Shown: piece by piece, positions 501-34,210 of the stretch
How the letters are laid out: each line of letters opens with the position of its first letter
Position numbering within the stretch: position 1 is the first letter of the stretch
Source: Lachnospiraceae bacterium
Lineage (GTDB): Bacteria > Bacillota > Clostridia > Lachnospirales > Lachnospiraceae
Assembly: GCA_050944395.1 (NCBI GenBank)
Contig: JBMNQZ010000003.1
Coordinates: 22,244-86,243, forward strand
Length of the DNA: 64,000 bases
Reading direction: 5' to 3'
Notes under the pieces: model-generated
Database searches by the model: none
What the model was told of the DNA's origin: nothing
The model's input: only the letters and a program-made list of their open reading frames with translations
Made by a program: the position numbers and the translations under genes

Positions 501-1169
501 ATGGAATTAATATTGATCGACAGATATATGGAAATAATTAAACAGTGCCCTTTGTTTGATAAGGTTCCTGATTCGGAGCTCCGTAGAATTCTGGAAGCGG
601 ATGATACTCGTTTGATCAGAGTGGACAGATCCCGGGAATTGACCAATGAATGCATGTATGTGGTTATCAAAGGATTTGTGCATATTGAGAAGGCTGCTTC
701 CGATGGGCGGTATATTACCATGAGAAGTGCGGGAGTTGCTTCTCCTATCAATGTTGCCGGAGCGTTGGGAAAGAAGGATGAAAATTCCAGACTTACTGCA
801 AGCAGGGACGGACGGCTTTTGTGCATCAGCGGAAAGACTCTTGAAAGGAGTATCCGCAAAGGCGGACAACTGGCCTATAATATCGTCGATTTTTTATCCG
901 AGAGGATATATTTTTTGAATAAAAAGATCGTGTCGCTGGCCGGGTATACCGCAGCGAGCCGGCTGAATATGTATATAGAAGAAAATCGCGTCGGGAATGA
1001 AGTTATTATTCCCATGAGCCTTGCTGAATTTGCCGAGTATCTGGGGGTCGGCCGGGCGTCTCTTTACAGAACGCTTGATGCCCTGGAAAGTTCGGGGAAG
1101 ATTGAGCGGAAGGGCAGAAAAATAACGATTACGGAGGATCGCGCAGAAGATCATCCGGAACAGGAATGA
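501..1169 (+). CDS. Crp/Fnr-family transcriptional regulator (cNMP-binding-like domain plus C-terminal HTH)
   Basis: The N-terminus MELILIDRYMEIIKQCPLFDKVPDSEL is typical of the family. The C-terminal HTH reads MSLAEFAEYLGVGRASLYRTLDALESSGKI. The ORF track starts at GTG 426; I prefer ATG 501. The stop lies only 8-14 nt before the next gene. Confidence 0.8.
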   Translation: MELILIDRYMEIIKQCPLFDKVPDSELRRILEADDTRLIRVDRSRELTNECMYVVIKGFVHIEKAASDGRYITMRSAGVASPINVAGALGKKDENSRLTASRDGRLLCISGKTLERSIRKGGQLAYNIVDFLSERIYFLNKKIVSLAGYTAASRLNMYIEENRVGNEVIIPMSLAEFAEYLGVGRASLYRTLDALESSGKIERKGRKITITEDRAEDHPEQE

Positions 1170-1182
1170 TAAGAGAGTGATT

Positions 1183-3771
1183 ATGGATAAGTATTATTCG
1201 GGTAAAAAAATAGGGGAAGCGGATTTCCCGATACCGTTTCCGCAGCAGCTGGAATACAGTTCACCGGCAAGAGGTGTCTGGAATATCGTTCATACCGGCA
1301 TGCTCATACCGGAGTGTCATGAGATTTTTGTATGCGCCAAGGGATGTCTGAGAGGTGTTGTTCTCACAGCGGCTGAAATGGGACAGATGGGACGGTATTC
1401 GGCGCTGGAGATTCAGGAAAAATATGTCATTACCGGGCATATTGAGGAATTTATGATAAAGGGCGTCGGGGATATATTAAGCAAGCTTTCCTACAGACCC
1501 AAGGCGGTATTGTTGTATATTAACTGCCAGCATTTTTTCCTGGCATATGACCAGCAGTATGTATTCCGGACACTGAGGGAAACTTATCCGGATATAGATT
1601 TTGCGGATTGTTATATGATACCGACGCTGAGAAAGAGCGGAATGAGTCCCGACAGGAAAATGAGGATCCAGCTTTACAGCCTGCTGAAGCAACGACCGGA
1701 AAATGACAGGCAGATAAACCTGATGGGAAGCAATCATGCGATAGAGAGAACGAGTGAGCTTTACGAGATGCTGGAAAACAAAAAATACAGTATCAGATCT
1801 CTGAATGACTGCAGTACCTATGAAGAATATCAGCAGCTTGCCGCGGGAAGGCTGAACATCATTTATGAGCCCCAGGCGATAAATGCGGCAAAGGATATGA
1901 AGGAAAGGCTGGGAATTCCGTATCTTTATCTGCCCTGCGTTTTTTCCGAACATGAGATCTCCCTGAGATATAAATATCTTCTTGCAGAATTATATGAGGA
2001 TCACGATGATGACTGGCTTGCCGGGAAGGAGAGAGAGGCTTCAAGGGCGATAAAGAAAGCCCGTGAGATCATAGGAGATACCGCAATTGCGATCGATTAT
2101 ACTCTGGTCTTCAGAGTGCTGTCGCTGTCGAGAAGGCTTTTGGAGGCCGGATTTAATCTTAAGAGAATATATGTTGATGTCATGAATCCCGAGGAGAGGA
2201 GAGATTTCGACTGGATAAAGGAAAATCATCCCGAGATTGAAATATTCCCGACATCGCGACCCGATATGAGACGAATGAAGGGAAGACTATCGGAAAAATC
2301 CGGAGGAAAGGTTCTGGCTCTTGGCCAGAAGGCTGCATATTTTGAGCAGACGGAGTATTTTACGGATATTACCGAGGGCGGAGGACTTTTCGGATATGAC
2401 GGAATTATCAGGATGGCTGAGCTCATGACGGATGCTTTCCTCAATAAAAAGGATGTCAGGGAGCTGGTGCAGAAGAAGGGCACAGGATGCAGGTGCATTC
2501 TCGGTGAGGACCCTGATGAATATGCAAGGATTCCGTCGGAGCTGAGCCGCATTTCATCCACGGGGATGAAGGAGAGCGCCAGTCTGATACCGACATATTC
2601 CTCGGATGAATTCGGAGTGTGTTCCGCACTTTACGATCTGGGCGGAATGACGGTCATGCACGATGCATCCGGATGCAATTCGACATACACAACTCACGAT
2701 GAACCGAGATGGTACGATTCGGACAGTCTGGTATACATTTCGGCGGTATCGGAGAGGGAATCGATATTGGGAGATGACGGGAAGCTGATGCGGGATATTT
2801 CGGACGCTGCCGACATGCTGGATCCGGAGTTTATTGCCCTGGTGGGAGCACCTATCCCATACATGACGGGAACCGATCTTAAGGGAATCGCCAGGGTGAT
2901 CGAAGCCGAGCGAGGGACGGTCTGCATGGGCTTTCAGACGAACGGCATGCGCGACTATGTAAGAGGAATATCGCTGGCGCTCGAGGCAATTGCCGACCGC
3001 TACTGCCCGAAAGGAGACGAAGAAGAGCTGCGGGAAAGAACAAAAGTAAGCGCCGGATACAGGGCCGGTGCCCGCATGATAACGGCATCCGATCTGGAGG
3101 GCGCGGAAAATATCAATATTATCGGCGTTACTCCGATGGACTTCCATGATATGGATGCGGTTGAGAGGATACGCAGCTGGATAGCTGAAAAAAATGTTCA
3201 AAAGGTGCCAGGCACCATTTTATCATTTGGTATGAACGGGGATCTTGCCGGGTACAGCAATGCCGGATCGGCAGATCTGAATCTTGTTCTCTCGTCAGGA
3301 GGTCTGAAATGCGCGGAGCTTTTGAGGGAGCGTTTCGGAACACCGTTTGTTGTCGGCGTACCGTGCGAGGCTTTTGCGGATGATGAGGCGCTGAAACGCG
3401 TAACCTGGCTTGAAAGACTGAATAAGGGTGACAATGTTCTGATAATAGGCGAGTACGTAACTTCGAGATCTCTTGCAGATTATCTTGAGAAATCAAAAGG
3501 AGTAAATGCCGTGGTGTTTGCCATGACTGAGACGGCTCCCCGCCTGCTTAGAAAGAATGAGAACGGCGAAGCTTCAGATAAGATATTAAACGGTGAAGAT
3601 GAGCTTATCAGGGAGCTGAAGGCTCTCGAGAGCGAAGGTTTGATTGATAAGGTGATCGCGGATCCGTTTTTCAAAGTAATATGTCCGGAGTCGGCAGAAT
3701 TCATATCTGTACCGCACAGGGCATTTTCAGGAAGGATATTTGATAATGTTAAAACTTGCAATTTATGGTAA
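1183..3771 (+). CDS. Fused nitrogenase component-1-like oxidoreductase (two NifD/K/E/N-like halves in one 862-aa chain)
   Basis: By eye, the N-terminal half is paralogous to ORF 4492-5820 (shared blocks [40 protein letters not shown]). The C-terminal half is paralogous to ORF 5817-6935 (shared ...DEPRW..., [26 protein letters not shown]). It sits next to a NifH-like gene. The start is either GTG 1177 or ATG 1183. Confidence 0.75.
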
Positions 3772-4495
3772 AGGCGGAATAGGAAAATCAACTACAACGG
3801 CTAACCTTGCGGCAGCCTTTGCATCTATGGGAAAAAAGGTCGTGCAGATAGGCTGTGATCCGAAGGCGGATTCAACGGTCAATCTTCTCCACGGGAATCC
3901 CGTGAAATCCGTAATGGATTACATGAGAGATTTTGATGAGGCGCCGGACAGCCTGGATAAGATAGCAAAGGAAGGTTTCGGAGGCGTTGTCTGTATCGAG
4001 ACCGGAGGACCTACCCCGGGACTGGGATGTGCGGGAAGGGGAATACTTACAACCTTTTCGCTCCTTGCGGATCTGGAGCTTTTTGAGACGTATAAACCGG
4101 ATGTTGTACTTTATGATGTTCTGGGGGATGTTGTGTGCGGAGGATTTGCGGCGCCTATCAGAGAGGGCTATGCAGAGCATGTTCTTATCGTGACCTCCGG
4201 AGAAAAAATGGCACTCTATGCAGCCAACAATATCTGTACGGCGGTCGAAAACTTTAAGGACAGAGGCTACGCTTCGGTGCTCGGCGTGATAATGAATCGC
4301 CGTGATGTGGAAAATGAGGAGGAGAAGGTGACGGCCTTTGCCTCGTCAAAAAATCTTCCGGTCCTTGCGGACATTCCGAGAAGCAAAGAGATCATTAAAT
4401 ATGAAGATATGGGAATGACCGTTGTGGAAGGCGATGCGGATCTTGATGTCAGCAGGAGATATATTAAACTTGCGGAAAGGCTTTTGGAATTATGA
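3746..4495 (+). CDS. NifH/BchL/CfbC-family ATPase (nitrogenase iron-protein-like reductase component)
   Basis: P-loop [12 protein letters not shown]. Switch I CDPKADST. The two [4Fe-4S] cysteines occur in their canonical contexts, GLGCAGRG and [12 protein letters not shown]. An AGGAAGGA RBS precedes ATG 3746. The gene overlaps the upstream gene's end, and its stop overlaps the next start (ATGA). Confidence 0.9.
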
Positions 4496-5820
4496 CGCGG
4501 GAAGACAAACAGTTTATGAATGAGAGGTGTGTTTCGTTTACCGCTTCGGAGCTGGCATCGATGGATTTTTCGGGGATACCCTCGGAGCTGAAATCCGGGG
4601 AGCATCTCATATACAGTTCCCCGGCAACTTTAAGCTTTAATTCTCCGGGTGCTCAGGGATTCGGAGTGAAACGGGCGGGGCTTGCGATACCGGGTTCGGT
4701 AATGCTTCTTGTGGCTCCGGGCTGCTGCGGCAGAAACACCTCGGTGTTGAGTGACGAAAAGAGATACGGTTCCAGATTTTTCTATCTTCTTCAGGATGAT
4801 ACGGATATCGTGACGGGGCGTCATCTCATGAGAATCCCCCGGGCGGTAAAGGAGGTTGTTGATTCACTGGATGAAAAGCCGTCCTGCGTGATGATCTGTA
4901 CGACCTGCGTTGATGCGCTTTTGGGAACCGATGTGGAACGTGTCTGCAGAAAGTCGACCGATAAAGCGGGGGTTCCCGTGATTCCGTGTTATATGTACGC
5001 ACTCACGAGAGACGGGAGCAAGCCGCCGATGGTAGAAGTGAGAAAAAGCATTTATTCACTTCTTGAAGAGCGTCCCAGAAAGAGCAATGTGGTTAATCTT
5101 CTGGGTGAGTTTTCTCCGTATGACGATGAAACGGAGCTCTACGATATTCTTCATAAGCTCGGAATAAAAAAGATCAATGAGATCTCCAGATGTAAGACTT
5201 TTGAAGAATATAAAAAGATGGCCGAAGCGAATTTTAATATTGTGATAAATCCCGAATGCAGATATGCGGCCGACGATATTTACAAAAGGCTGGGAATACC
5301 GGCTGTCTCGCTTACCAGGCAGTACAGGATCGATAAGATCCACAGCCAATATCAGCTTTTCGGCGGGGCGATAGGCTGTAAAATTGACGATTCGGAATAT
5401 TACGGGAGAGCGGAAAGGTCTGTGAAACAATTTTCGGAGAAATTCGGAGGGGAAAAGCCGCTGAAAATTGCGATCGGAGAATGGATGAACGGAGATCCCT
5501 TTGAGATGGCTGCGGCATTTGCCGGTTACGGAATGAAAATAACGGAAATATTCGGAACAGTGACAGATACAAATCTTGCCTACATAAGAAAGCTTGCGTC
5601 AATGGATCCGGATGTAAGAATTTATACAAATCTTCATCCGACAATGATCAATTATGATATGAGCAGGATCGAGTGCGATATTACCATAGGAAAGGACGCC
5701 GGATATTATCATCCGGACTGCCCGAATATCCCGTGGAACAGCGAGGACAGACCGTTTGGATATGCAGGCCTTGAGAAGCTGCTTAAGGAGATCGAGAAAA
5801 ATGCCGGAGGTGCTGAATGA
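4492..5820 (+). CDS. Nitrogenase component-1-like protein (X' subunit, NifD/E-like position)
   Basis: Paralogue of the N-terminal half of ORF 1183-3771. Cysteine motifs VAPGCCGRN and [16 protein letters not shown] overlaps couple it to both neighbouring genes. Confidence 0.7.
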
Positions 5821-6935
5821 AGGGATTATTAAAGTATCTTGCTCCGTTTGCTCCGGATCAGTCCGGCGCGGCAGCTGTATTCTATGATATGGATTGCATC
5901 ACAGTGGTATGCGATGCGGGAGGATGCATAGGAAATTACTGCGGGTTTGACGAGCCCAGATGGTTCGGGCACAAGAGCCCTATCTTCAGTGCCGGCCTGC
6001 GCGATATGGATGCGATACTGGGAAGAGATGACAAGATGGTCGCAAAGCTTAAGCTGGTGTCCGACAAGTTCAACTCAAAATTTGCTGCACTTATCGGCAC
6101 CCCTGTTCCTGCTGTCATAGGAACCGATTACAGAGCGCTGAAAAAAATGGCGTCAAAGAGGTGCGGGATCCCCGTCCTTGGTGTTGAGTGCAGCGGAACC
6201 AAGCTGTATGACGAGGGCGAGTCTGACGCTTATCTGGAATTGTTCAGAAACTTTTCAGGGGACGGAAAGACTGAAGATATTTCAAAAGATTTGCATGAGA
6301 ACGAGAGGATACTTGGAATTATCGGGGCGACGCCGCTGGAGCTGACCGATGTGGATGCGGATAAAAAGCTGAGGGATCATTATCTGAGAAGGGGTTACAC
6401 GAAGGTTTTCTGTTACGGAATGGGAGACGGCTTTGACGAGGTATGTATGGCCGGAAAAGCCGCGAAAAATATTGTTTTGTCCCCTGCGGGAATAAAAGCG
6501 GCGGAATATCTTAAGGAAACATTCGGAACACCGTATGAGGCGGAGTATATGATTCTCGGGGATGATATAAAGGATGAGGCGAGGAAGAAGCTCCTGGCCG
6601 CAAAGGCGTCAAAAAAAGCAGGAGCCGATGACGAAGGACCGATAAAGATTCTTGTCATTCATCAGCAGGTGATAGCGGATGCTATGAGAACATTTATAGA
6701 AGATGAAGCCGGAGAGGCTGAGGTATCAAATGCCACCTTCTTTATGATGGACAGATCGCTGGCAAGGCCGGGAGATGTTCACATTGAATCCGAGGAGGAG
6801 CTGCGGAAGCTTGTTTTCGAGGGCGGATTCGACATCGTTGCCGCAGATGATATTCTCAGAAAAGCCGTGAGAGGATATGAGGGAGAATGGATCTCATTTC
6901 CGCATTTCGCGGTATCCGGAGATATCGAAAGATAG
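5817..6935 (+). CDS. Nitrogenase component-1-like protein (Y' subunit, NifK/N-like position)
   Basis: Paralogue of the C-terminal half of ORF 1183-3771. N-terminal CX4CX4CX4C motif (DCITVVCDAGGCIGNYCGFDEPRW). ATGA overlap with the upstream gene. Confidence 0.7.
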   Translation: MKGLLKYLAPFAPDQSGAAAVFYDMDCITVVCDAGGCIGNYCGFDEPRWFGHKSPIFSAGLRDMDAILGRDDKMVAKLKLVSDKFNSKFAALIGTPVPAVIGTDYRALKKMASKRCGIPVLGVECSGTKLYDEGESDAYLELFRNFSGDGKTEDISKDLHENERILGIIGATPLELTDVDADKKLRDHYLRRGYTKVFCYGMGDGFDEVCMAGKAAKNIVLSPAGIKAAEYLKETFGTPYEAEYMILGDDIKDEARKKLLAAKASKKAGADDEGPIKILVIHQQVIADAMRTFIEDEAGEAEVSNATFFMMDRSLARPGDVHIESEEELRKLVFEGGFDIVAADDILRKAVRGYEGEWISFPHFAVSGDIER

Positions 6936-6961
6936 AAAATTAAAAGTATTTGGAGAAATAC

Positions 6962-9379
6962 ATGAGCGACATGAAACAGACTTTCAGGATATGTGTGTAC
7001 GGAATAGTACAGGGGGTGGGCTTCAGGCCTTTTGTGAGCCGTATAGCTGATGCCGCAAAGATCACGGGAAGCGTGGCAAACCGCGGATCCTATGTCGAGA
7101 TATTTGCCTGCGGGACAAAGGGTCAGATTGAAATTTTCAGGCATGACCTTGAGGCGAAGGCTCCCGAGAGGTCGGATATATTGAAGATATCCATGCAGGA
7201 GATCTCCCACGATGATGAGAGGATCGCGGGGTATTCCGATTTTCAGATAATTGAAAGTGAACGGGAAGAAGGAAGCATTTACGTATCGCCGGATATTGCA
7301 ACGTGTCCGAAGTGTGCAAAGGAGTTATATGATCCGTCAGACAGGCGATATATGCATCCTTTCATAAATTGTACGGCATGCGGTCCCAGGCTGACTATTC
7401 TTGATTCCATGCCGTACGACAGAGTGAGGACGAGTATGGGAGAGTTCCCTATGTGCCCCGCCTGCGAGGAGGAATATACCCACGCCGAGAGCCGCAGGTA
7501 CGATGCACAGCCTGTCTGCTGCAATGACTGCGGCCCGGAGGTTTATATTATTAACGGGAAAAACGGCGGAATAGAAAACGCTTTGATAAAGGGACGAGAG
7601 GCGATCACCTATGCAAGGCAGGGAATTATCGACGGAAAGATAATTGCTATCAAGGGAATAGGCGGATATCACCTGTGCTGCAATGCAAAGGATGAGGCGG
7701 CGGTTGCCAGGCTCAGAACGCTGAAGAGGCGCCCGGCAAAACCGTTTGCGGTAATGATGAAGGATCTTGAAACGGTGAGAAGACAGTGCGAGATTCCCTC
7801 CGCAAAGACAGAGGAGCTTTTGAACGGACACCAGAAGCCGATCATTCTCCTTCGCAAAAAGGAGGACGGGACACTGGCGCCTTCCACCGCACCGGACAAT
7901 CCGAATATCGGGGTGATGCTGCCCTATGCTCCCGTGCAGATGCTGTTGTTTGACTACAATGACGGTCTGACAATGAATACCGACTGCTTTGTGATGACTT
8001 CCGGCAATGTAAGCGGGGCGCCCATATGCAGGACGGATGAGGATGCGGTCAGTGAATTATCGGGGTTCTGCGATATTATTCTTTCTCACAATAGAAAGAT
8101 TCGTCTTCGGGCGGACGATTCGGTTGTGGATATTTATGAAAATGAACCCTATATGATAAGAAGATCCAGGGGCTTTGCCCCGCTTCCGGTGATGACGGAT
8201 GCCGATCTTAAGGGCGCGGTTCTCGGAATCGGAGGAGAGCTGAAAAATACTTTCTGCATTGCCAAAGATCAGCTTTTTTATGAATCGCCCTACGTCGGAG
8301 ATATGGCGGATGTCAGAACCGTCAATGCATTGAGGGAATCCGTAAAACGTATGGAGGAGCTTCTGGAGGCCAAGCCCGAAAGAGTGATCTGCGATATGCA
8401 TCCGAAGTACAATACAACTCTGGTGGCAAATGAACAGGGAGTCGAAGTGACTCAGATCCAGCATCATTATGCTCATATTCTTTCGTGTATGGCGGAGAAT
8501 GATTTTGAAGGGCGTGTGATAGGACTTTCTTTTGACGGAACCGGATACGGAACCGACGGGACCATCTGGGGCGGAGAGCTTCTTCTTTGTGATTACAATG
8601 GATTTGAAAGGTCGGGAAGCATTATGCCGTTTAGCCAGGTCGGGGGAGATCTTTCGGCAAAAGAGGGCTGGCGGATCGCTGCATCCATGATCCATTCATT
8701 ATATAAAGAAGAGGGGCCTGGTATCTGTGAAAAGATCGGATTATGCAGTGAAGCTGAAGCGAAAATGATCGGAAAGATGGCGGACAGGGGCATTAACACA
8801 GTAATGTCCACCAGTGCCGGACGTCTGTTTGATGCCGTAAGTGCGGTTCTCGGAATCAGGAAAGCCTCCACATTTGAGGGAGAGGCTTCTATGACGCTTC
8901 AATTCAGAGCTCAAAAATATGAGACATATTATTCGGATCCGGCATCCGCAGAGGCGCTTGTCGATCGGATCGTGCAGGAGAATCCGAAGCTTCTTTCAAT
9001 GAAGGAGCTTGAGGGCAGGATGACAATGCCGACAGATGAGCTGTTTGCATATATTCTCTCGGAAACGGAAGGCAGAATAAAGGAATGCGGTCGGTCGGAC
9101 GATGAGTTCCAATGCAGGCTGGCCTATGTTTTCCATTCGGTACTTGCCAGGATGGCGGCAGAGGCGGCGAAAATAATTTTCGCATCGGGAAAGTGTGATA
9201 CGGCGGCTTTGAGCGGCGGAGTTTTTCAGAATACACTGCTGCTTGGACTGACCGAGAAGGGAATTATTTCCGGAGGACACAAGGTTATAAGGCATCATTT
9301 AATACCTCCGAACGACGGGGGAATAGCCCTTGGACAGGCTGCGTATGGGATGAGAAATATTGCCGGGAATAATATCTGA
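6962..9379 (+). CDS. hypF: Carbamoyltransferase HypF
   Basis: Acylphosphatase-like N-terminus (ICVYGIVQGVGFRPFV). Two zinc-finger pairs (CPKCAKELYDPSDRRYMHPFINCTACGPR and CPACEEEYTHAESRRYDAQPVCCNDCGP). A YrdC-like region (IKGIGGYHLCCNA) and a Kae1-like C-terminus. About 800 aa. ATG 6962 follows a GGAG RBS; the track start is TTG 6950. Confidence 0.92.
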   Translation: MSDMKQTFRICVYGIVQGVGFRPFVSRIADAAKITGSVANRGSYVEIFACGTKGQIEIFRHDLEAKAPERSDILKISMQEISHDDERIAGYSDFQIIESEREEGSIYVSPDIATCPKCAKELYDPSDRRYMHPFINCTACGPRLTILDSMPYDRVRTSMGEFPMCPACEEEYTHAESRRYDAQPVCCNDCGPEVYIINGKNGGIENALIKGREAITYARQGIIDGKIIAIKGIGGYHLCCNAKDEAAVARLRTLKRRPAKPFAVMMKDLETVRRQCEIPSAKTEELLNGHQKPIILLRKKEDGTLAPSTAPDNPNIGVMLPYAPVQMLLFDYNDGLTMNTDCFVMTSGNVSGAPICRTDEDAVSELSGFCDIILSHNRKIRLRADDSVVDIYENEPYMIRRSRGFAPLPVMTDADLKGAVLGIGGELKNTFCIAKDQLFYESPYVGDMADVRTVNALRESVKRMEELLEAKPERVICDMHPKYNTTLVANEQGVEVTQIQHHYAHILSCMAENDFEGRVIGLSFDGTGYGTDGTIWGGELLLCDYNGFERSGSIMPFSQVGGDLSAKEGWRIAASMIHSLYKEEGPGICEKIGLCSEAEAKMIGKMADRGINTVMSTSAGRLFDAVSAVLGIRKASTFEGEASMTLQFRAQKYETYYSDPASAEALVDRIVQENPKLLSMKELEGRMTMPTDELFAYILSETEGRIKECGRSDDEFQCRLAYVFHSVLARMAAEAAKIIFASGKCDTAALSGGVFQNTLLLGLTEKGIISGGHKVIRHHLIPPNDGGIALGQAAYGMRNIAGNNI

Positions 9380-9445
9380 GGCGATAGAGATATCTGATAA
9401 TAATAACATTTGATAAAGAAGGAGCGGTCAGCTTTAGGAGGAAAT

Positions 9446-9655
9446 ATGTGTGTAGGATTATCGGCGAAGGTTGTAGGAATTAAAAACGGCATGGCAGTAG
9501 TTGATGCCATGGGCGCAAAAAGAGAAGTTTCGGCGGAGCTTATCGATGAGCTTGAACCCGGAGATTACGTAATGGTGCATGCCGGGGTTGCCATTGCCAG
9601 GATCACTTCCGATGACACGGAAGAAACGGATGACATCCTGAATTCTCTTTTGTAA
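9446..9655 (+). CDS. hypC: HypC/HybG/HupF-family iron-cyanocarbonyl chaperone
   Basis: The 69-aa protein starts MCVGLSAKVVG, retaining the essential Cys2. An AGGAGG RBS lies 5 nt upstream of ATG 9446. It sits between hypF and hypD. The track start at 9410 is too long for this family. Confidence 0.85.
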   Translation: MCVGLSAKVVGIKNGMAVVDAMGAKREVSAELIDELEPGDYVMVHAGVAIARITSDDTEETDDILNSLL

Positions 9656-9712
9656 GGGATCGGAAAGGTTTTACAGGAAAAGCAGACTTGGATTTATTGC
9701 GGAGGAATTATT

Positions 9713-10774
9713 ATGACTGGATCCGGAACAGAGGGAGGAGCAAAGCCCTCGGCACTGGAAATAATAAAGAATTACAAAGGTCCGAAGATCAGAATAATGG
9801 AGGTGTGCGGCACGCATACACATGAGATATTCAGGCTCGGAATCAGAAAGATACTCCCGGAAAGCATAGAGCTGATATCCGGTCCCGGATGTCCGGTATG
9901 CGTTACGGAGGTTGGATTTATCGATATGGCAATTCTCCTTGCGAAGGAGCATGGATGTGTAATATGTACGTTCGGAGATCTTATCCGTGTGCCGGGAACA
10001 AACGGAAGTCTGGCGGATGCCAGGAGCACGGGAGCGGAAATAAAGATCGTGTATACTCCGTTGGATGCGTATACATTTGCGAAGGAAAATCCGGACAAGC
10101 AGGTGGTATTCCTTGCGGTGGGATTTGAGACGACTACTCCCGGAGCATGCCTTGCAGTCAAAAAAGCAAAGGAGGACGGGCTTAAGAATTTCTCGATCCT
10201 TGCGTCTAACAAGACCATGCCAAATGCTTACCAGGCGTTAAAAGGAAGTGCGGACGCTTTTTTGTACCCCGGACATGTTCATGCGATAACCGGTGAGGAG
10301 GAATGTGAAAGGCTCAGGGATGAGGGAATCTCCGGAGTGATCGCAGGCTTTACCGCAAAGGAGCTTTTGGCGGCGATCGCGGTTATTCTCAAAAAATATC
10401 AGGAGAAGGAGCCGTTTTTTGTAAATTGTTATCCCAGGGTCGTGACTAAAGAGGGAAGCATTTCCGGAAAGGCGATTATTAAGGAAGTGATGGAGCCCTG
10501 TGATATGCAATGGAGAGGACTCGGAACGATTCCAATGAGCGGGCTGAAACTGAGAGATGAATACGCGGAATATGATGCCGAAAGAAAATACGGAATTGAG
10601 CATATTGAGGGCAAGCCGAGTCCTGCGTGCCGGTGCGGAGAGGTGCTGCAGGGAAAATGCAAGCCTTCCGACTGCAAAGTTTTTGGAAAAGTGTGTACGC
10701 CGGAGCACCCGGTGGGAGCGTGTATGGTCTCGAACGAAGGTGCGTGCTCGGCATATTATCAGTATAGGATTTGA
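9713..10774 (+). CDS. hypD: HypD Fe-S scaffold protein
   Basis: Motifs GPGCPVCV and GFETT. C-terminal cysteine cluster CRCGEVLQGKCKPSDCKVFGKVCTPEHPVGACMVSNEGAC. Confidence 0.92.
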   Translation: MTGSGTEGGAKPSALEIIKNYKGPKIRIMEVCGTHTHEIFRLGIRKILPESIELISGPGCPVCVTEVGFIDMAILLAKEHGCVICTFGDLIRVPGTNGSLADARSTGAEIKIVYTPLDAYTFAKENPDKQVVFLAVGFETTTPGACLAVKKAKEDGLKNFSILASNKTMPNAYQALKGSADAFLYPGHVHAITGEEECERLRDEGISGVIAGFTAKELLAAIAVILKKYQEKEPFFVNCYPRVVTKEGSISGKAIIKEVMEPCDMQWRGLGTIPMSGLKLRDEYAEYDAERKYGIEHIEGKPSPACRCGEVLQGKCKPSDCKVFGKVCTPEHPVGACMVSNEGACSAYYQYRI

Positions 10775-10789
10775 TAGAGGTAAAGGATT

Positions 10790-11794
10790 ATGAACGATAC
10801 GGTAAAACTTGCGCACGGAGCCGGCGGAAAGCAGACTTCGGAACTTATTGAAAAGGTTTTTAAGGCACATTTCGCAAATGAACAGTTTACTGCGGATGAT
10901 GCGGCAGTCCTTTCTCTTCCGAAGGGAAGATTTGCGATGACAACAGACGGATTTATCGTTTCACCTTTTGAATTTCCGGGCGGAAATATCGGAAAGCTCA
11001 GCATTTGCGGAACAGTCAACGACCTTTCGTGCATGGGTGCGAAACCGCTGTATATGACCTGCGGATTTGTTATCGAAGAGGGATTTCCGATGGAAAAGCT
11101 TGAGATGATCGCGGCTTCCATGGAAAAGACCGCCGCAGAGGTGGGGGTTCGGATCGTTGCGGGAGATACAAAGGTTGCCGGGAAAGGCCAGGTGGACAAT
11201 GTATTTATTACAACTACGGGAATCGGAATTATTGAGGACGGCGCAGATACCTCGGGGGCGTACGCAAGGCCGGGGGATGCGGTCATCGTAACGGGAGACA
11301 TCGGAAGGCATGGCTGCACGATACTTCTTGAGAGAGAGGATCTGGGAATAGATGCGGAGGTGGCCAGCGACTGTGCGCCTCTTTGGAATACAGTGAAGGC
11401 AATGATGGATGTTTCGAAGGACATTCACGTAATAAGAGATGCGACCAGGGGAGGCGTGGGAACTGTCCTCTATGAGATCGCTGCGGAGAGTAATGTGGGA
11501 GTGAGAATCGAGACGGAAAGCATTCCTGTGGCCCCGGCGGTAAAGGGAGTGTGCGGAATGCTCGGACTCGATCCCATGTACCTTGCAAATGAGGGAACCA
11601 TGGTGGTGATCGTTCCCGATGATAAAAAAGAGGCGATACTTAATGCGCTTCATGAAGACAAATACGGAAAAAATGCCGCGGTTATTGGAAAGATAACCGA
11701 GGAAAACAAGGGAAGCGTGATAATTACAACAGAAATCGGCTCGGAGACAATGCTTCCTCAGCCGGGGGGAGAGATGCTTCCGAGAATCTGTTAA
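10790..11794 (+). CDS. hypE: HypE carbamoyl dehydratase (thiocyanate-forming)
   Basis: PurM-like fold signatures and the canonical C-terminal PRIC* motif. Confidence 0.92.
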   Translation: MNDTVKLAHGAGGKQTSELIEKVFKAHFANEQFTADDAAVLSLPKGRFAMTTDGFIVSPFEFPGGNIGKLSICGTVNDLSCMGAKPLYMTCGFVIEEGFPMEKLEMIAASMEKTAAEVGVRIVAGDTKVAGKGQVDNVFITTTGIGIIEDGADTSGAYARPGDAVIVTGDIGRHGCTILLEREDLGIDAEVASDCAPLWNTVKAMMDVSKDIHVIRDATRGGVGTVLYEIAAESNVGVRIETESIPVAPAVKGVCGMLGLDPMYLANEGTMVVIVPDDKKEAILNALHEDKYGKNAAVIGKITEENKGSVIITTEIGSETMLPQPGGEMLPRIC

Positions 11795-11859
11795 AAGGTG
11801 CCAGGCACAAGCACTAAAAGTGCCAGGCACAAACACTAAAAGTGCCAGGCACCTTTTTT
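11793..11859 (+). terminator. Terminator built from a tandem palindromic repeat (three GTGCCAGGCAC cores)
   Basis: Sequence: AAAAGGTGCCAGGCAC-aagcactaaaa-GTGCCAGGCAC-aaacactaaaa-GTGCCAGGCACC-TTTTTT. The outer arms AAAAGGTGCC/GGCACCTTTT are complementary, and a T tract follows. It begins at the hypE stop codon. Confidence 0.7.
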
Positions 11860-12032
11860 GCGCGGAATGTCTCCTGGAGAGTCTTGAGCTTTTAACAGCC
11901 GCATGCAGAATCCTCAGGACGAAGTGTATAGATCATGTGGAGGCTAATGAAGAAAGATGCTCGGAGCATCTGAAGGGCTCGCTGGAGGAAGTGACGAGAA
12001 GAGCTTCCGAAATAGGGTATGATAACGTATGA
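11820..12032 (+). CDS. Small aspartate-ammonia-lyase/fumarase C-terminal-domain-like ORF (truncated; start uncertain)
   Basis: The segment ...LLTAACRILRTKCIDHVEANEERCSEHLKGSLEEVTRRASEIGYDNV resembles the C-terminal region of AspA/FumC-family lyases (ANEERC...SL...IGY). The stop overlaps the hydE start (ATGA). The only in-frame start lies inside the repeat element, so translation is uncertain. Confidence 0.4.
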   Translation: MPGTNTKSARHLFCAECLLESLELLTAACRILRTKCIDHVEANEERCSEHLKGSLEEVTRRASEIGYDNV

Positions 12033-13081
12033 ATGACGAAGTTAGATCACTTATCGATAAACTAAATGAAAATAAGACGCTGGAAAGATCCGAGTGGATA
12101 GAAGTAATAGAGGGCTGCAGCGAAGAGTCGAGGGCCTATGCCGCACTTCTTGCGTGTGAGGCAAGAGAGCCGTATTACGGAAAAAAAGTATTTTTGCGAG
12201 GCCTTATAGAGTTCACGAATTACTGCAAAAACAACTGTTACTATTGCGGAATAAGATGCGGAAACAAAAATGTTAACAGATACCGTCTGACCAAAGAGGA
12301 GATAATGGCCTGCTGTGATGAAGGCCGGAATCTGGGCTTCAGGACATTTGTGCTTCAGGGCGGAGAGGATCCGTATTTTACCGATCAGAGGATAGTCGAG
12401 ATCATAGGGATGATAAAAGAAAAATTCCCTGACTGTGCCATCACACTGTCTATCGGCGAAAGGCCGAAGGATAGCTACAGGGCTTTCAGGGAGGCGGGCG
12501 CCGACAGATATCTCCTTCGCCATGAGACTGCCAATGAGGAACATTACCGCATGCTGCACCCCGAAAATCTGTCTGGCGAAAACAGAAAGCGATGTCTTTG
12601 GGATCTAAAGGAGCTCGGTTTTCAGGTCGGTGCGGGATTTATGGTCGGGGCGCCGTTTCAGACGAGCGGAACACTTGCGGAGGACATGTTGTTTTTAAAG
12701 GAATTAAATCCCGCAATGGTGGGAATCGGACCGTTTATCCCTCATCATGACACGTGCTTTGCCGGCAAACCTGCCGGAACGCTGGAGCAGACGCTTTATT
12801 TACTGAGTCTTATCAGAATAATGATTCCCCGGGTCCTTCTGCCCGCAACCACAGCCCTGGGAACGATAGATCCAAAGGGTCGGGAGAAGGGAATGCTTGC
12901 GGGAGCCAATGTTGTTATGCCGAACCTTTCTCCTACAGAGGTGAGAAAGGATTATCTCCTTTATGATAATAAGATATGTACGGGTGATGAGTCGGCACAG
13001 TGCAGGCGATGCATGGAACTCAGAATGGAAAACATCGGATATGAGATCGCCTACGGACGCGGAGATGCACTTAACATGTAA
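12029..13081 (+). CDS. hydE: [FeFe]-hydrogenase maturase HydE (radical SAM)
   Basis: Radical-SAM motif CKNNCYYCGIR. HydE-typical blocks RGLIEFTNYC, FVLQGGEDPYF and GADRYLLRHETAN. 350 aa. Confidence 0.88.
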   Translation: MNDEVRSLIDKLNENKTLERSEWIEVIEGCSEESRAYAALLACEAREPYYGKKVFLRGLIEFTNYCKNNCYYCGIRCGNKNVNRYRLTKEEIMACCDEGRNLGFRTFVLQGGEDPYFTDQRIVEIIGMIKEKFPDCAITLSIGERPKDSYRAFREAGADRYLLRHETANEEHYRMLHPENLSGENRKRCLWDLKELGFQVGAGFMVGAPFQTSGTLAEDMLFLKELNPAMVGIGPFIPHHDTCFAGKPAGTLEQTLYLLSLIRIMIPRVLLPATTALGTIDPKGREKGMLAGANVVMPNLSPTEVRKDYLLYDNKICTGDESAQCRRCMELRMENIGYEIAYGRGDALNM

Positions 13082-13202: not shown

Positions 13203-14399
13203 ATGAGCATGAACAGTACTCCTTCGGGAGAGAGGATCCATATAGGAATATTCGGAAGGCGAAATGCCGGAAAGTCGAGCCTTATTAATGCACTCACAGG
13301 CCAGAGCCTTGCCATAGTGTCGGATGTCCGTGGAACGACAACGGATCCCGTTTTAAAGGCTATGGAGCTGCTGCCTCTGGGTCCGGTCGTTATGATCGAT
13401 ACCCCGGGACTTGATGATGAGGGCGAGCTTGGAGTACTCAGGGTGAAGAAGGCGTATCAGATGCTGAACAAAACGGATATTGCCCTTCTGGTAGTTGACG
13501 CTTCGTGCGGAATGACGGATGCGGATCGGTCCATTCTTGAAAGGATCAGGGATAAAAAGATCCCGTATATCATCGTCTATAACAAATGTGATATGCTGGA
13601 GAACGCGGATAAAAAAGAGCAGCCGGGGGACACGATCTATGTTTCTGCCGAAAAGGGCATAAATATCTACGAACTCAAGGAGCGCATCGGAAAGGCTGTA
13701 AAGCTTGATGATGAAAAGCTCAGGATAGTCGGCGACCTTCTGAATCCGGGAGATTTCGCGGTACTGGTGGTTCCTATCGACAAGGCGGCGCCCAAGGGGC
13801 GGCTTATTCTGCCCCAGCAGATGGTGATAAGAGATATCCTTGAGGCCGATGCCACAGCGATCGTTGTGAAGGAACATGAGCTCAGGGAGACTCTTGAGGG
13901 ACTTTCAAAAAAACCCTTCATGGTCATTACCGACAGCCAGGTATTTGCAAAGGTATCCGCAGATACACCGGACGATGTGTACCTCACATCATTTTCTATC
14001 CTTATGGCAAGGTACAAGGGGGATCTGAAATCCCTCGCTGCAGGAGCCGGGGCGATAGAAACTCTTGAAGACGGGGATAAGATCCTTATTTCGGAGGGAT
14101 GCACCCACCACAGACAGTGTGATGATATCGGAACTGTAAAGCTCCCAAGATGGATAAGAAATTATACCGGAAAGGAAATCGAGTTTGAATTCTCTAGCGG
14201 TGTTGAATTCCCCTCCAATCTGGAAGAATACAAGATGATAATCCACTGCGGAGGCTGTATGCTCAATGAAAGAGAAGTAAAATACCGTATGAAGTGCGCC
14301 GCGGATGCGGGGAAACCGATGACAAATTACGGAACGGCTATTGCCTACATGCAGGGGATCCTTGAGAGGAGCATGGAGGTATTCGGGGATGAATATTGA
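13203..14399 (+). CDS. hydF: [FeFe]-hydrogenase maturation GTPase HydF
   Basis: G1 motif GRRNAGKSSLINALTG and G3 motif DTPGLDD. C-terminal cluster motifs EGCTHHRQC and HCGGC. Confidence 0.9.
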   Translation: MSMNSTPSGERIHIGIFGRRNAGKSSLINALTGQSLAIVSDVRGTTTDPVLKAMELLPLGPVVMIDTPGLDDEGELGVLRVKKAYQMLNKTDIALLVVDASCGMTDADRSILERIRDKKIPYIIVYNKCDMLENADKKEQPGDTIYVSAEKGINIYELKERIGKAVKLDDEKLRIVGDLLNPGDFAVLVVPIDKAAPKGRLILPQQMVIRDILEADATAIVVKEHELRETLEGLSKKPFMVITDSQVFAKVSADTPDDVYLTSFSILMARYKGDLKSLAAGAGAIETLEDGDKILISEGCTHHRQCDDIGTVKLPRWIRNYTGKEIEFEFSSGVEFPSNLEEYKMIIHCGGCMLNEREVKYRMKCAADAGKPMTNYGTAIAYMQGILERSMEVFGDEY

Positions 14400-14566
14400 T
14401 TTTTGATCCGGAATAATGAAAATAAGCAGGTTTAACATATTTTTTTGTTTGCCTAAATTAGCTTTTGATGATAAAATAATTACACAAATATACAAATATG
14501 GCAAAACTTTCGAAAGGAAGCGACGCAAAGTTTAGTATCTAAGTGTTATTGCATATGATTGACTGA

Positions 14567-14607
14567 CTGCGCATAGAGAGATTCTTCTATGTGCAGTTTT
14601 TGTTTTT
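14567..14607 (+). terminator. Rho-independent terminator downstream of hydF
   Basis: CTGCGCATAGA (14567-14577) pairs with TCTATGTGCAG (14586-14596) with one mismatch. TTTTTGTTTTT follows. Confidence 0.7.
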
Positions 14608-22175: not shown

Positions 22176-23692
22176 GAAAGCTATTCGATAAAAGCGGAGT
22201 ACTGGCGCTGTGCCGCGCATACGGATACGCGGGGGTAATCACCATAGGTCCCATGCTGCTCGGAGTTTTGCTTCTGGTCGGAATGGCGTTTATCTCGAAT
22301 ATCGGCGGACTGGATCCGCATTTAAGAGAGCTGCTCAACTGTATGCTCACTTATACTCTGCTGGGATCTCTGACGGTGACCAGCTGGTTTAATATGGGAA
22401 TAACCAGATTTGTCTCGGATATGCTGTATCAGAAAAAGAATGAAAAGATCATTCCGTCTTTCCACGGAGTGTGCAGCATCATGCTGGTGATAGGAGGCGT
22501 CGGCTACGGAATATTCCTTGCATTTTCCGGGGCAAATCTTATCAGATGCATTCTCTGCCTGTGGCTCCTCATGATCCTTATTATAGTCTGGACGGAAGTG
22601 ATCTATCTGACTGCCATAAAGGATTACAGACAGATAGTTGCCGCGTTTGCCATCTCTTTGATGGCCGGATTTCTCCTTGCTCTCATCTTTATTTTGCTGG
22701 GACTTGTATATCTTGAGACCATGCTTTTTTCGGTGATCGTAGCCTACGGAATTCTGGCTTGCTGGAATTACAGGCTTATGCTTGATTATTTTCCCAGGGC
22801 GGAGGGAAGCAATTTCTCTTTCCTGAGATGGATGGACAAATACCGAAAGCTGGTGCTGGGCGGCGGATTTTTGAATATCGGGCTTTTTTCACACCTTATT
22901 ATCATGTATTTCGGTCCACTGAGGGTTCAGGTCGAGGGACTGTTTTACGGAGCGCCCCAGTATGATGTCCCGGCACTTATCGCTTTCTTCTCGGTGCTTG
23001 TCACCACCGTGGGGTTCGTGACTTCCGTGGAGGTCAGATTTTACCCGATGTACAGCAATTATTACGGGCTTTTTAATGACAGGGGAGCGATCGGTGATAT
23101 AAAGCACGCCGGGGAGGAAATGCTGGCCGTACTGAGAAGAGAGCTGACATTTGTCGGGCACAAACAGATGTTTACGACTATATTATTTATTGTTATCATG
23201 TCCGCGCTGCTACAGACGCTGCCGCTGGGAATGTCGTCGCTTGCCATCAATATTTTCAGGTTTTTATGTGTGGGGTACGGCGCATATGCGGTGGCAAATA
23301 CCAACATGCTTATACTCCTGTATTTTGAAGACTACATGGGTGCTATGACAGGGTGTGCGCTGTTTGCCATAATAAGCACTGCCGGAACCATAGTACAGAT
23401 ATCTGTGGGGGAGGAAGGTCTGTTTGGCTTAAGCTTTATCGCCGGCGCCGTGGTGTTCTATATTTTTACGATATTGAGGCTGGAGTGGTACACCAAAAGG
23501 CTGCCGTATTTCCTGCTTTCCCGCCAGAGTGTTGTTCCGCATCCCGAAAAGGGACTGTTTGCGGCGATCGCCGGAAAGCTTGACAGGAGAGCCGAAAATA
23601 TTAGAGCAAAGAGGGAGGCCGAGCTAATAAGGCTGGCCAGAAGAGAGATGGAAAAACAGGGAATGGATCCGAAAGGAGCGTTAAAGAGTTGA
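22151..23692 (+). CDS. pelG: Pel exopolysaccharide transporter PelG (polytopic membrane protein)
   Basis: It starts MAGIGFSLRKLF, the characteristic PelG N-terminus, and has about 12 hydrophobic segments. It overlaps the pelF end. Confidence 0.85.
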   Translation: MAGIGFSLRKLFDKSGVLALCRAYGYAGVITIGPMLLGVLLLVGMAFISNIGGLDPHLRELLNCMLTYTLLGSLTVTSWFNMGITRFVSDMLYQKKNEKIIPSFHGVCSIMLVIGGVGYGIFLAFSGANLIRCILCLWLLMILIIVWTEVIYLTAIKDYRQIVAAFAISLMAGFLLALIFILLGLVYLETMLFSVIVAYGILACWNYRLMLDYFPRAEGSNFSFLRWMDKYRKLVLGGGFLNIGLFSHLIIMYFGPLRVQVEGLFYGAPQYDVPALIAFFSVLVTTVGFVTSVEVRFYPMYSNYYGLFNDRGAIGDIKHAGEEMLAVLRRELTFVGHKQMFTTILFIVIMSALLQTLPLGMSSLAINIFRFLCVGYGAYAVANTNMLILLYFEDYMGAMTGCALFAIISTAGTIVQISVGEEGLFGLSFIAGAVVFYIFTILRLEWYTKRLPYFLLSRQSVVPHPEKGLFAAIAGKLDRRAENIRAKREAELIRLARREMEKQGMDPKGALKS

Positions 23693-27266: not shown

Positions 27267-27269
27267 GAT

Positions 27270-28022
27270 ATGAGAAAAAGGGTGTACAGAAATGAATGGA
27301 AATACCTGATATCGTATCCCGAGGCAAGGCTTCTTATGGACAGACTGAAGCCGTTTATGCATCTTGACGCGCATGCTTCCGACGGAGGATACCTTATAAG
27401 AAGCCTGTATTTTGACGACTGGAAAAACACGGCGTACGAAGAAAAGATTATGGGTACGATGAACAGAGTGAAGTGGAGGATAAGGATATATGATTATTCC
27501 GATAAAACCATAAACCTTGAGCGGAAGAAAAAGTCCGGGAGCTATATTTACAAAGAATCCGCACGCATAACAAGAGAGGATTTTGAGAGGATCCTGGACA
27601 ATGATTTTTCTTTTCTGCTCGATAAGGATGAAAATCTTTGCCGTGAATTCTATTTTGAGTGTATGTCGAAGGTCATGAGGCCGAAGGTTATCGTGGATTA
27701 TGAACGAGTTCCGTATGTTTTGGATGAGGGAACCGTGAGAATCACTTTCGACAGCGACGTGAGGGCGGCATACGGGAGCTTTGACATTTTTGATCCGACG
27801 CTTCCCGCTATGTATGTTCTTGAGCCTGAGAAGCTTGTTCTTGAGGTTAAATATACGGAATTCCTGCCGGACATCATAAGGCAGCTGCTGCCGCTTAGGG
27901 GGCAGGAGTTCACCGCGTTGTCGAAATATACTACCTGTTATGAGAAGGTACACCATCTGACGGATATTACATCGGGTGTTTCAAAGTCAATATTGCGAGG
28001 GAGAATCAGAGATGAGCATTAA
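27270..28022 (+). CDS. VTC (polyphosphate polymerase/triphosphate-tunnel) domain protein
   Basis: N-terminal YRNEWKYLI, with LERKKK and LEVKYT strands typical of CYTH/VTC tunnel folds. About 250 aa, the usual size for bacterial VTC proteins. Confidence 0.7.
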   Translation: MRKRVYRNEWKYLISYPEARLLMDRLKPFMHLDAHASDGGYLIRSLYFDDWKNTAYEEKIMGTMNRVKWRIRIYDYSDKTINLERKKKSGSYIYKESARITREDFERILDNDFSFLLDKDENLCREFYFECMSKVMRPKVIVDYERVPYVLDEGTVRITFDSDVRAAYGSFDIFDPTLPAMYVLEPEKLVLEVKYTEFLPDIIRQLLPLRGQEFTALSKYTTCYEKVHHLTDITSGVSKSILRGRIRDEH

Positions 28023-33900: not shown

Positions 33901-33924
33901 TAAGCGAAACTCGATTTGAAACGC

Positions 33925-34210
33925 TGTGAAGCGGACTAGTAGATGATCATTTTCTTCTGAAGAGAGATGCCGGTTGCTGCGAGGCATTGAAGGAGGTTCG
34001 TTGAACTCACCGTGGAGCGGCTGCGGTGAAAATTGCAGTAGCTGCAGACGGGTGCTCCCGATACAGGGCAAGGGTGTGTTTGCACTTAAAGGGCATTTCA
34101 GTTTTTGAAATGAAAAAGAGTGGTACCGCGGAAGAAAGTATGATTATGTGACTCTTTCGTCTCTTTGATTATCTGGAGGAAGATAATGTGAGACGGAGGA
34201 GATTTTTTAA
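33925..34210 (+). promoter_or_regulatory. T-box leader riboswitch, probable leucine (CUC) specifier
   Basis: Stem I elements (AGAGAG at about 33960). Specifier-loop context GAA-CUC-A, with CTC at 34006-34008. Conserved T-box sequence AGAGTGGTACCGCGG at about 34117-34131. Terminator CGTCTC/GAGACG followed by ATTTTTT at about 34158-34207. Confidence 0.75.

Follow-up and report, generated by a model that had tools for sequence, protein, structure and literature searches.

A conserved gene cluster of gut and rumen anaerobes places putative NifEN-like modules beside Hyp and Hyd maturases

Introduction

To our knowledge, biosynthetic Fe-CO/CN centres occur in only three classes of enzyme, each matured by a pathway of its own, and nitrogenase-type scaffolds are known only for Fe-S-carbide clusters. 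In the canonical Hyp pathway, HypF and HypE start from carbamoyl phosphate and leave a cyanide equivalent on the C-terminal cysteine of HypE; an Fe(CN)2CO unit is put together by HypC and HypD. Here, we analyse a stretch of 64,000 nucleotides from a Lachnospiraceae bacterium (assembly GCA_050944395.1, contig JBMNQZ010000003.1, positions 22,244 to 86,243; the whole stretch is called the window), in which genes for nitrogenase-like (Nfl) proteins directly precede hypF, hypC, hypD and hypE and are followed by the H-cluster maturase genes hydE and hydF.

Such a neighbourhood has been glimpsed before. In a single sentence, Dos Santos et al. (2012) recorded that Coprococcus catus and further Firmicutes have NifHEN-like genes beside hydrogenase maturation genes, and they also noted nif-like genes beside ABC transporters (PMC3464626). 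By their description, the clusters of C. catus GD/7 and of Dorea longicatena resemble ours in having two linked NifHEN-like copies with few conserved cysteines, adjoining hydrogenase maturation genes and human-gut Firmicute hosts; the maturases involved were not analysed in that paper (PMC3464626). The window likewise has two component 1-like pairs together with hypFCDE and hydEF, but differs in having one NifH-like gene, a fused first pair, a crp/fnr gene and the remnant of an aspA gene. As Dos Santos et al. had recorded it, the adjacency itself is not a new observation. Apart from their paper, a full-text literature search found none that links nitrogenase-like proteins to Hyp or Hyd maturases, and a July 2026 Chemical Reviews article on nitrogenase-like systems is silent on HydE, HydF and hydrogenase maturation (PMC13474568). 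According to that review, a function is verified or proposed in Group IV only for Nfa, CfbCD, MAR and ISR, besides the long-known DPOR and COR, and the NFL groups IV-D, IV-E and VI are uncharacterised (PMC13474568).

Results

A nitrogenase-like gene cluster that extends to hydF

The original prediction, made from the letters of the window alone, had described a nitrogenase-like operon with hypFCDE at 501-11794. Its genes, from crp/fnr through hypE, were confirmed at their places by Pfam and NCBIfam, all on the + strand. Its downstream end, however, cuts the cluster, so that hydE and hydF were missed. The genes are as follows:

501-1169, + strand: crp/fnr-family regulator (Pfam HTH_Crp_2 and cNMP_binding)
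1183-3771, + strand: NflD1K1, a fused NifE-like and NifN-like protein of 862 aa, 'module 1' (Pfam Oxidored_nitro twice)
3746-4495, + strand: NflH, NifH-like ATPase ('H2' type), the sole one in the cluster (PF00142, 1.2e-87)
4492-5820, + strand: NflD2, NifE-like subunit of 'module 2' (Oxidored_nitro)
5817-6935, + strand: NflK2, NifN-like subunit of module 2 (Oxidored_nitro; motif DAGGC37xGNxC42GFDEPRW)
6962-9379, + strand: hypF, carbamoyltransferase (TIGR00143, 715 bits against a cut-off of 466; all five of five Pfam domains)
9446-9655, + strand: hypC, whose product begins MC (TIGR00074, 62.6 bits against a cut-off of 48; N-terminal Cys2)
9713-10774, + strand: hypD (TIGR00075, 395 bits against a cut-off of 193; 42% identity to E. 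coli HypD)
10790-11794, + strand: hypE, with C-terminal PRIC (TIGR02124, 431 bits against a cut-off of 252; 43% identity to E. coli HypE)
12029-13081, + strand: hydE, radical-SAM H-cluster maturase (TIGR03956, 586 bits against a cut-off of 255; CX3CX2C)
13203-14399, + strand: hydF, H-cluster scaffold GTPase (TIGR03918, 581 bits against a cut-off of 326; HydF_dimer and HydF_tetramer)

The nif-like genes overlap or abut, nflH overlapping the fused gene upstream by 26 nt and nflD2 by 4 nt. The short gaps of the original prediction were borne out, at 7-13 nt between crp and the fused gene and 14-26 nt between nflK2 and hypF.

The arrangement recurs across distant genomes

We searched species-representative genomes with a D1K1 homologue alignment, which gave at least 589 related stretches, and analysed the loci from the best 80. 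Counts seeded on D1K1 refer to 82 non-redundant loci, onto which the window's proteins were mapped. The hosts are mostly gut and rumen Clostridia, among them Ruminococcus albus AR67, Lachnospiraceae G41 and NK3A20 and Sarcina DSM 11001, with further hosts in Coriobacteriaceae, Selenomonas, Synergistaceae, Mogibacterium and Sutterella. At least one of the Hyp, HydE, HydF and TM1266 genes is present in 79 of the 82 loci, and HypF/D/E in 49. Wherever the order could be evaluated (47/47 loci), hypF comes directly after a NifEN-like pair with a NifH of its own, and the median gap is 43 nt. Among the 49 loci with full flanks, Hyp genes lie in 37 and hydE or hydF in 30; both kinds are present in 19 and neither in 1.

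A reciprocal scan of metagenome contigs, seeded on K2, gave 80 contigs that represent about 29 lineages at 90% identity. Here, hypF lies within 600 nt downstream of K2 in 66/67 evaluable contigs, and the remaining contig also has hypF after its DK2 pair. The K2-hypF adjacency spans lineages only 35-60% identical, with gaps usually of tens of nucleotides, and D1K1 is also encoded on 31 of the 32 K2-seeded contigs with full flanks. Co-occurrence of this component 1 clade with hypCDEF across genomes, which the original prediction had named as a check, is upheld by both scans. As it recurs across such distant genomes, the arrangement goes beyond chance.

Unbiased clustering of the ORFs around D1K1 loci returned Nfl, NifH, HypFCDE, HydE, HydF, TM1266, an ABC importer of the FecCD/BtuF (iron-chelate) type and AspA, and no further recurrent neighbour family; crp/fnr, absent from these families, is specific to the window. 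The genes of the two modules are interleaved with hyp, TM1266 and hyd genes, for example as H2-DK2-HypFCDE-TM1266-DK1-HydF-HydE. As in the window, a single NifH-like gene accompanies two DK pairs in 9 of 27 complete Hyp-containing clusters. R. albus AR67 (L019) has the full cluster including hypFCDE; between its hydF and hydE (L019, 6307-8141) stand three small ORFs of 168, 222 and 214 aa with no Pfam or NCBIfam match. Judged by gene content and order, the region belongs to a conserved and widespread type of cluster, found in anaerobes of the gut and rumen and composed of D1K1, D2K2, a NifH-like ATPase and HypFCDE, usually with HydE, HydF and TM1266.

Two paralogous NifEN-like modules with different cysteine sets

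NflH has the features of the Fer4_NifH ATPase family that had been reported for it, with an intact P-loop (GKGGIGKS) and both [4Fe-4S] cluster cysteines (in CAGRG and VVCGGF). It falls below all curated NifH, CfbC and BchL cut-offs and is 82% identical to the Hyp-proximal NifH of a related locus (L001). NflD2 is 100% identical to NCBI MGI6020063.1, from a Lachnospiraceae metagenome-assembled genome.

The four component 1 domains of the original prediction are real, and they form two paralogous NifEN-like modules, D1K1 and D2K2. By profile-profile comparison (hhalign), D2 matches the N-terminal half of D1K1 at E 3e-48 and K2 the C-terminal half at E 1.5e-65, a similarity far above that of either module to any solved structure. 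The best solved matches by profile are NifE, which is the best for D2, and the natural NifEN fusion 9i0g (E 1e-16 to 5e-22); D1K1 is collinear with the latter (profile E 4.8e-22). An AlphaFold (AF2) model of D1K1 (pLDDT 74.9, pTM 0.76) retrieved fused NifEN first in Foldseek, at E 1e-20, then NifK, AnfK, NifN, NifE, MAR and DPOR subunits, at 11-16% identity. A single-sequence search of the PDB with the fused protein gave no match; the matches came from profiles only.

Both K subunits share a 'GC...DEPRW' signature that is found nowhere else in solved families, its K2 form being DAGGCxGNxCGFDEPRW. With K2 as query, 1213 representative clusters among 1.84 billion proteins matched at E <= 1e-3 and 428 at E <= 1e-30, and from these numbers we take the clade to be well separated.

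The conserved cysteines set the two modules apart. D1K1 has exactly four that are highly conserved, Cys51, Cys55 and Cys115 in D1 and Cys498 (K1 Cys53), each kept in 99-100% of 78-79 homologues. This 3+1 arrangement is the NifEN [4Fe-4S] pattern, in which three cysteines come from E and one from N, and the alignment places the site opposite NifE TCVPALIGDD and NifN HGAQGC. D2K2 has seven, in a 5+2 pattern: Cys78, Cys79, Cys136, Cys139 and Cys152 in D2 and Cys37 and Cys42 in K2.

The Nfl proteins fall outside the characterised classes

All curated models of NifD/E/K/N, NifH, Vnf, Anf, BchB/L/X and CfbC/D scored the Nfl proteins far below their cut-offs. As for the catalytic components NifDK, VnfDK and AnfDK, the proteins have neither the 3+3 P-cluster cysteines nor the FeMo-co ligands Cys275 and His442, and their scores were 30.4 against 653.6 for nifD, 36 against 823 for VNFD and 23 against 874 for ANFD. 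No NifB or Mo/V-handling gene of a nitrogenase system was found in the 64-kb window or among the recurrent neighbour families. The curated nifE model TIGR01283 gave 71.6 for D2, 43 for the fused protein and 44 for K2, against 505, and the fused NifEN model PRK14477 gave 55.6 against 1229. DPOR and COR fared no better (DPOR_BchB 34.5 against 490, DPOR_bchL 211 against 345, BchX 203 against 331), nor did CfbCD of F430 synthesis (CfbD TIGR03282, or methan_mark_13, 29 against 268; CfbC NF033200, 294 against 402). MAR (9d9u/9fmg) was matched at E 1.4e-5 by the D2 profile and 6e-12 by the D1K1 profile, more weakly than NifE, and the cysteine set is not P-cluster-like.

With the NifH-NifEN cofactor maturation module the clusters share the component 1 fold and an organization in which one NifH-like ATPase can serve two paralogous DK pairs. 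They differ from it in that identity to NifEN is only 12-16%, no equivalent of NifE Cys250 is present, and the partners are Hyp and Hyd maturases, without NifB, NifX, NifV or Mo genes. With DPOR (BchLNB), COR, CfbCD and MAR they share an ATP-dependent NifH-like partner, an inter-subunit cluster ligated by cysteines and the lack of FeMo-co ligands, but no tetrapyrrole or sulfur-metabolism genes adjoin the Nfl clusters. By these comparisons, the DK pairs are most like NifEN yet lie outside every characterised family, and the cluster appears as a distinct, uncharacterised variant within the nitrogenase-like superfamily.

Canonical maturases without their usual partners nearby

HypF, HypC, HypD, HypE, HydE and HydF all score above the NCBI curated equivalog cut-offs and keep their diagnostic motifs: Cys2 in HypC; CGTHTH, GPGCPVC, GFETT and the C-terminal cysteine cluster in HypD; C-terminal PRIC in HypE; CX3CX2C in HydE; and CxHx(n)HCxxC in HydF. 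HydE matches the Thermotoga maritima HydE structures at E 1.1e-87, and HydF matches HydF structures at E 1.6e-111.

The original prediction had reported that hydrogenase subunits, a maturation protease, hypA, hypB, nifB and Mo/V transport genes are missing from the 64 kb. Profile scans agree, as Pfam and NCBIfam searches of the window's ORFs of at least 110 aa recovered none of these. By tblastn, E. coli HypA, HypB, HycE, HycG and HycI gave no match in the window at E <= 1e-3, where the positive controls E. coli HypD and HypE gave 1e-84 and 1e-87, and they gave none in about 168 related neighbourhoods (about 2.7 Mb). The Hyp proteins resemble the HypCDEF branch of [NiFe]-hydrogenase maturation in equivalog scores, catalytic motifs and the 42-43% identity of HypD and HypE to their E. 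coli counterparts, but differ from it in that HypA, HypB, the endopeptidase and the large and small subunits are lacking in the window and in those neighbourhoods, and in that a NifEN-like pair always precedes hypF.

HydG was likewise not found in the 64-kb window or, with Monoglobus pectinilyticus HydG as query, in 2.76 Mb of neighbourhoods, where weak cross-matches to hydE genes alone appeared; this negative covers neighbourhoods, and hydG is often unlinked, as in Monoglobus. In one locus (L087), a radical-SAM gene of 229 aa that follows hypE was rejected as HydG and had no PDB match; two other CX3CX2C proteins in related loci are a HemW-like protein and a SPASM-type enzyme. In Monoglobus, TM1266 stands directly before hydG, and in the Nfl clusters it stands directly before nflH1-D1K1. 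The M. pectinilyticus genes are on separate 'plasmid' records, TM1266-hydG on L171 (5587-7317) and hydF-hydE on L170 (12795-14996); these records carry the housekeeping genes recA, glyA and rpmB and look like pieces of chromosome rather than plasmids. The plasmid collection yielded one distant Treponema relative besides these Monoglobus hyd genes, which have no nif-like neighbours.

An aspA gene typically accompanies hyd maturase loci (PMC11736057), and full-length aspA-like genes follow hydF in four related loci. By its profile match, the aspA fragment in the window, which the original prediction had overlooked, is a remnant of such a hyd-associated aspA. Compared with HydE/HydF/HydG maturation of the H-cluster, the window has canonical hydE and hydF, and its relatives add TM1266 and aspA as in typical hyd loci (PMC11736057). 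They differ in that hydG is in no neighbourhood scanned and nflH1-D1K1 follows TM1266 where Monoglobus has hydG. Thus, hydE and hydF, with TM1266 and aspA in relatives, tie the cluster to H-cluster maturation of [FeFe]-hydrogenase as much as to Hyp.

Boundaries of the cluster and its surroundings

Three further features bear on transcription:

383-411, + strand: best sigma-70-like promoter match, TTGACA-17-TAGTAT, upstream of crp/fnr (10/12 consensus positions)
11794-11860, + strand: three 22-nt repeats, terminator- or attenuator-like (sequence and RNA fold)
11862-12032, + strand: aspartate ammonia-lyase (aspA) remnant, C-terminal ~55 residues (NF008909, E 2e-11, profile positions 368-422 of 474)

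By its consensus match, the site at 383-411 is a candidate for the place where transcription of the unit begins; the genes upstream of crp are small and unrelated. The terminator-like structure that had been placed at the hypE stop is there. Each of the 22-nt repeats contains the palindrome GTGCCAGGCAC, and together they form an outer stem of 10 bp that encloses two hairpins, with U6 after it; the RNA fold of 11785-11875 has an energy of -32.3 kcal/mol (z = -3.5), and 0/200 shuffles were as stable. The gap between hypE and hydE is 235 nt, and the aspA remnant within it ends at the start of hydE, which suggests a rearrangement that joined hydE-hydF to the hyp genes and destroyed aspA.

Downstream of hydF, a c-di-GMP-I riboswitch (RF01051) at 14490-14574 (62 bits against a gathering score of 35) starts a new unit. 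A hairpin at 14565-14598 was considered as a hydF terminator and rejected, being the 14-bp expression-platform terminator of this riboswitch and thus part of the next unit. We therefore place the cluster at about 0.4-14.4 kb, between the promoter-like site and the riboswitch-led unit, and, from the gene spacing, it may be transcribed as one message or two. Ahead of the cluster, Rfam matched no riboswitch, either in the window or in six related loci.

The rest of the window is of other kinds. An HD-GYP-type phosphodiesterase-like gene (~14.6-15.7 kb) directly follows the riboswitch. A Pel-like exopolysaccharide cluster (DUF2194, PelF, PelG) occupies 18.9-23.7 kb, and directly after it, at 23689-28695, come two CotH-kinase-family genes and then VTC-domain and DUF4956 genes. 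An ordinary T-box leader (33917-34167, 139 bits) stands upstream of the ilvB-ilvN-ilvC-ilvD / leuA-leuCD-leuB block at 34.3-45.2 kb. Two large surface proteins follow, one of 1231 aa with S-layer homology domains (45420-49115) and one of 886 aa that combines five lectin repeats of the ricin type with a GBS Bsp-like repeat (53426-56086), and acyl-CoA ligases are also encoded. GC skew is positive in almost all 2-kb bins of 1-64000 and the long genes are nearly all on the + strand, consistent with one leading-strand replichore of a Firmicute.

Discussion

The reading that we favour, though we regard it as about equally liable to be right or wrong, is an assembly line for a cofactor, in which the NifH/NifEN-like proteins would handle Fe-CN/CO units made by Hyp, with a link to HydE and HydF. 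HypF and HypE would first form a cyanide equivalent on the C-terminal cysteine of HypE, and HypC and HypD would then build the Fe(CN)2CO unit. The acceptor of this unit may be the cysteine-rich D2K2 pair, since no [NiFe] large subunit, HypA, HypB or protease is associated with the clusters and D2K2 is always directly upstream of hypF. The NifH-like ATPase would supply ATP-coupled low-potential electrons, drive insertion, or both, as NifH does on NifEN, and the single gene of the window and of a third of complete clusters would have to serve both DK pairs, as NifH serves NifDK and NifEN. D1K1, which occurs together with hydE, hydF and, in relatives, TM1266, would itself use the product in the end, or else serve as a second scaffold from which an Fe-CO/CN unit enters the HydE/HydF route to the H-cluster. 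In favour of the scheme, D2K2 has seven conserved cysteines against four in D1K1. It also fits that the known hydrogenases of R. albus 7 are all of the [FeFe] type, namely HydABC, HydA2 and HydS (PMC10838669), and that R. albus AR67 has the hypFCDE cluster.

How the product might be used can be proposed only tentatively. A NifH/NifEN-like machine that accepts a Hyp-made Fe-CN/CO unit might build the [2Fe] part of the H-cluster without HydG, in a Nif/Hyp/Hyd hybrid, or might equip D1K1 with an unknown CN/CO-ligated iron cofactor, which would make it a new class of organometallic enzyme in gut anaerobes; we consider this possible but less probable than the general scheme.

Several observations weigh against the assembly line. 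The D2 consensus has Asn where NifE has Cys250 (in MMVCSKA) and NifD has Cys275, so that a NifEN-style cluster-holding site is not evident in D2. HydE uses Fe(CO)2(CN) stoichiometry, whereas the Hyp product is Fe(CN)2CO, and because of this mismatch a simple transfer into the H-cluster route would call for additional steps. The hyd genes may form a transcript separate from the hyp genes, as a stable RNA structure, a U-tract and the decayed aspA lie between hypE and hydE. Two distant clade members, in Sutterella massiliensis (L045, 2643-13900) and on the Treponema saccharophilum plasmid pTS1 (L088, 9863-17519), have NifH-D-K with only a binding protein or importer of the iron-chelate type, and no Hyp or Hyd genes within 10-12 kb. 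The mechanism itself we infer from synteny and sequence. The proposal of the original prediction that nitrogenase-like and HypCDEF proteins work together, with Hyp serving something other than a nearby [NiFe]-hydrogenase, fits the synteny (47/47 and 66/67), whereas the CN/CO cofactor that it placed on the Nfl proteins stays a conjecture. Of the refuting conditions that the original prediction had set, those that were checked do not hold: adjacency is kept in related genomes, and by curated cut-offs and by profile and structure matches the proteins belong to no characterised clade. A Hyp-dependent nitrogenase homologue is plausible.

A different view of the same genes, which we think unlikely but which is next in probability to the assembly line, is that the Nfl proteins, rather than being scaffolds or cofactor carriers, use ATP to drive low-potential reductions on behalf of the maturases. 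They might make the CO ligand from CO2 at or for HypCD, reduce thiocyanate or cyanide on HypE to give an aminomethyl unit for the bridging ligand of the H-cluster, or reduce iron for HydE and HydF. Reduction of CO2 to CO is within the reach of NifH proteins and that of cyanide within the reach of nitrogenases, and we know of no resolved anaerobic origin for the CO ligand of the Hyp pathway. Both DK pairs are without FeMo-co or L-cluster ligands and resemble DPOR/CfbCD-type enzymes with a single inter-subunit [4Fe-4S] cluster, whose substrate is reduced while bound; the synteny with Hyp and Hyd fits equally, and aspA and TM1266 point to ligand supply for the H-cluster. However, D2K2 has three to four conserved cysteines beyond the need of one [4Fe-4S] cluster, a surplus that suggests an extra metal site, and no candidate substrate-binding feature could be identified. 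Two paralogous reductases would also be needed without obvious reason.

Somewhat less probable again is that module 1 (NflH with D1K1) is a reductase for a metal chelate or tetrapyrrole taken up by import (haem, a corrinoid or a siderophore, for example), that its proximity to hyd and hyp genes reflects a shared iron economy or regulation, and that the Hyp link belongs to module 2 alone. All characterised relatives with a single [4Fe-4S] cluster (DPOR, COR and CfbCD) reduce tetrapyrroles (PMC13474568), and nif-like genes beside ABC transporters were described by Dos Santos et al. (PMC3464626). Oscillospiraceae-type loci (L076, 5688-13582) interleave the genes of an iron-chelate-type ABC importer with the others, in the order TM1266, FecCD-type permease, ABC ATPase, HydE, NflH1, D1, K1, Peripla_BP_2 binding protein and HydF; the C-terminus of the ABC ATPase resembles TM1266, and no hyp genes lie within 10 kb. 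The Sutterella and T. saccharophilum members, which have only NifH-D-K and the binding protein or importer, would also suit a chelate reductase. Both lie outside the Firmicutes; the K subunit of the Treponema member carries HDASGCTGNYLGYDEPRW, and the Sutterella genes adjoin that of a type IV secretion coupling protein, a sign that they may have been transferred horizontally. Yet the window's cluster has no ABC importer, and D1K1 is interleaved with Hyp and Hyd genes, often shares the sole NifH with module 2 and is present in nearly every full-flank module 2 locus (31/32). Nor is there a cobalamin, NiCo or similar riboswitch in the six loci or the window's cluster.

We give little credence to the idea that the hyp genes work for an ordinary [NiFe]-hydrogenase whose genes lie at another place in the genome and that their own place beside nif-like genes is functionally meaningless. 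The Hyp proteins are canonical in score and motifs, and some Clostridium acetogens have hypCDEF without hypAB and yet are reported to have [NiFe]-hydrogenases (PMC9431212). Set against this, the K2-hypF adjacency holds in nearly all evaluable cases of both scans, hypA, hypB, the large and small subunits and the protease were never found in the neighbourhoods, and the R. albus hydrogenases in the literature are all [FeFe] (PMC10838669). Finally, although NifH-like and component 1 Pfam domains are present, nitrogen fixation, by a conventional or alternative nitrogenase, is ruled out for practical purposes by the ligand pattern (no 3+3 P-cluster cysteines and no Cys275/His442 equivalents), the lack of NifB in the window and among the recurrent neighbours, and Nif, Vnf and Anf scores far below the curated cut-offs.

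The assembly line and its alternatives are directly testable in cultured carriers, namely R. albus, C. catus and D. longicatena. Uncharacterised nitrogenase-like clades are, according to the 2026 review, the main open problem of its field (PMC13474568), and for one such clade the cluster offers a handle on function. A conserved link at operon level between NifH/NifEN-like proteins, HypCDEF and HydE/HydF would, if true, amount to a fourth way to make or use Fe-CO/CN centres; the alternative implications, if true, would be a HydG-independent route to the H-cluster or the missing anaerobic source of a diatomic ligand. With relatives in at least 589 species-representative stretches, the cluster is common in fermenters of the human gut and the rumen, and it could bear on H2 production there.

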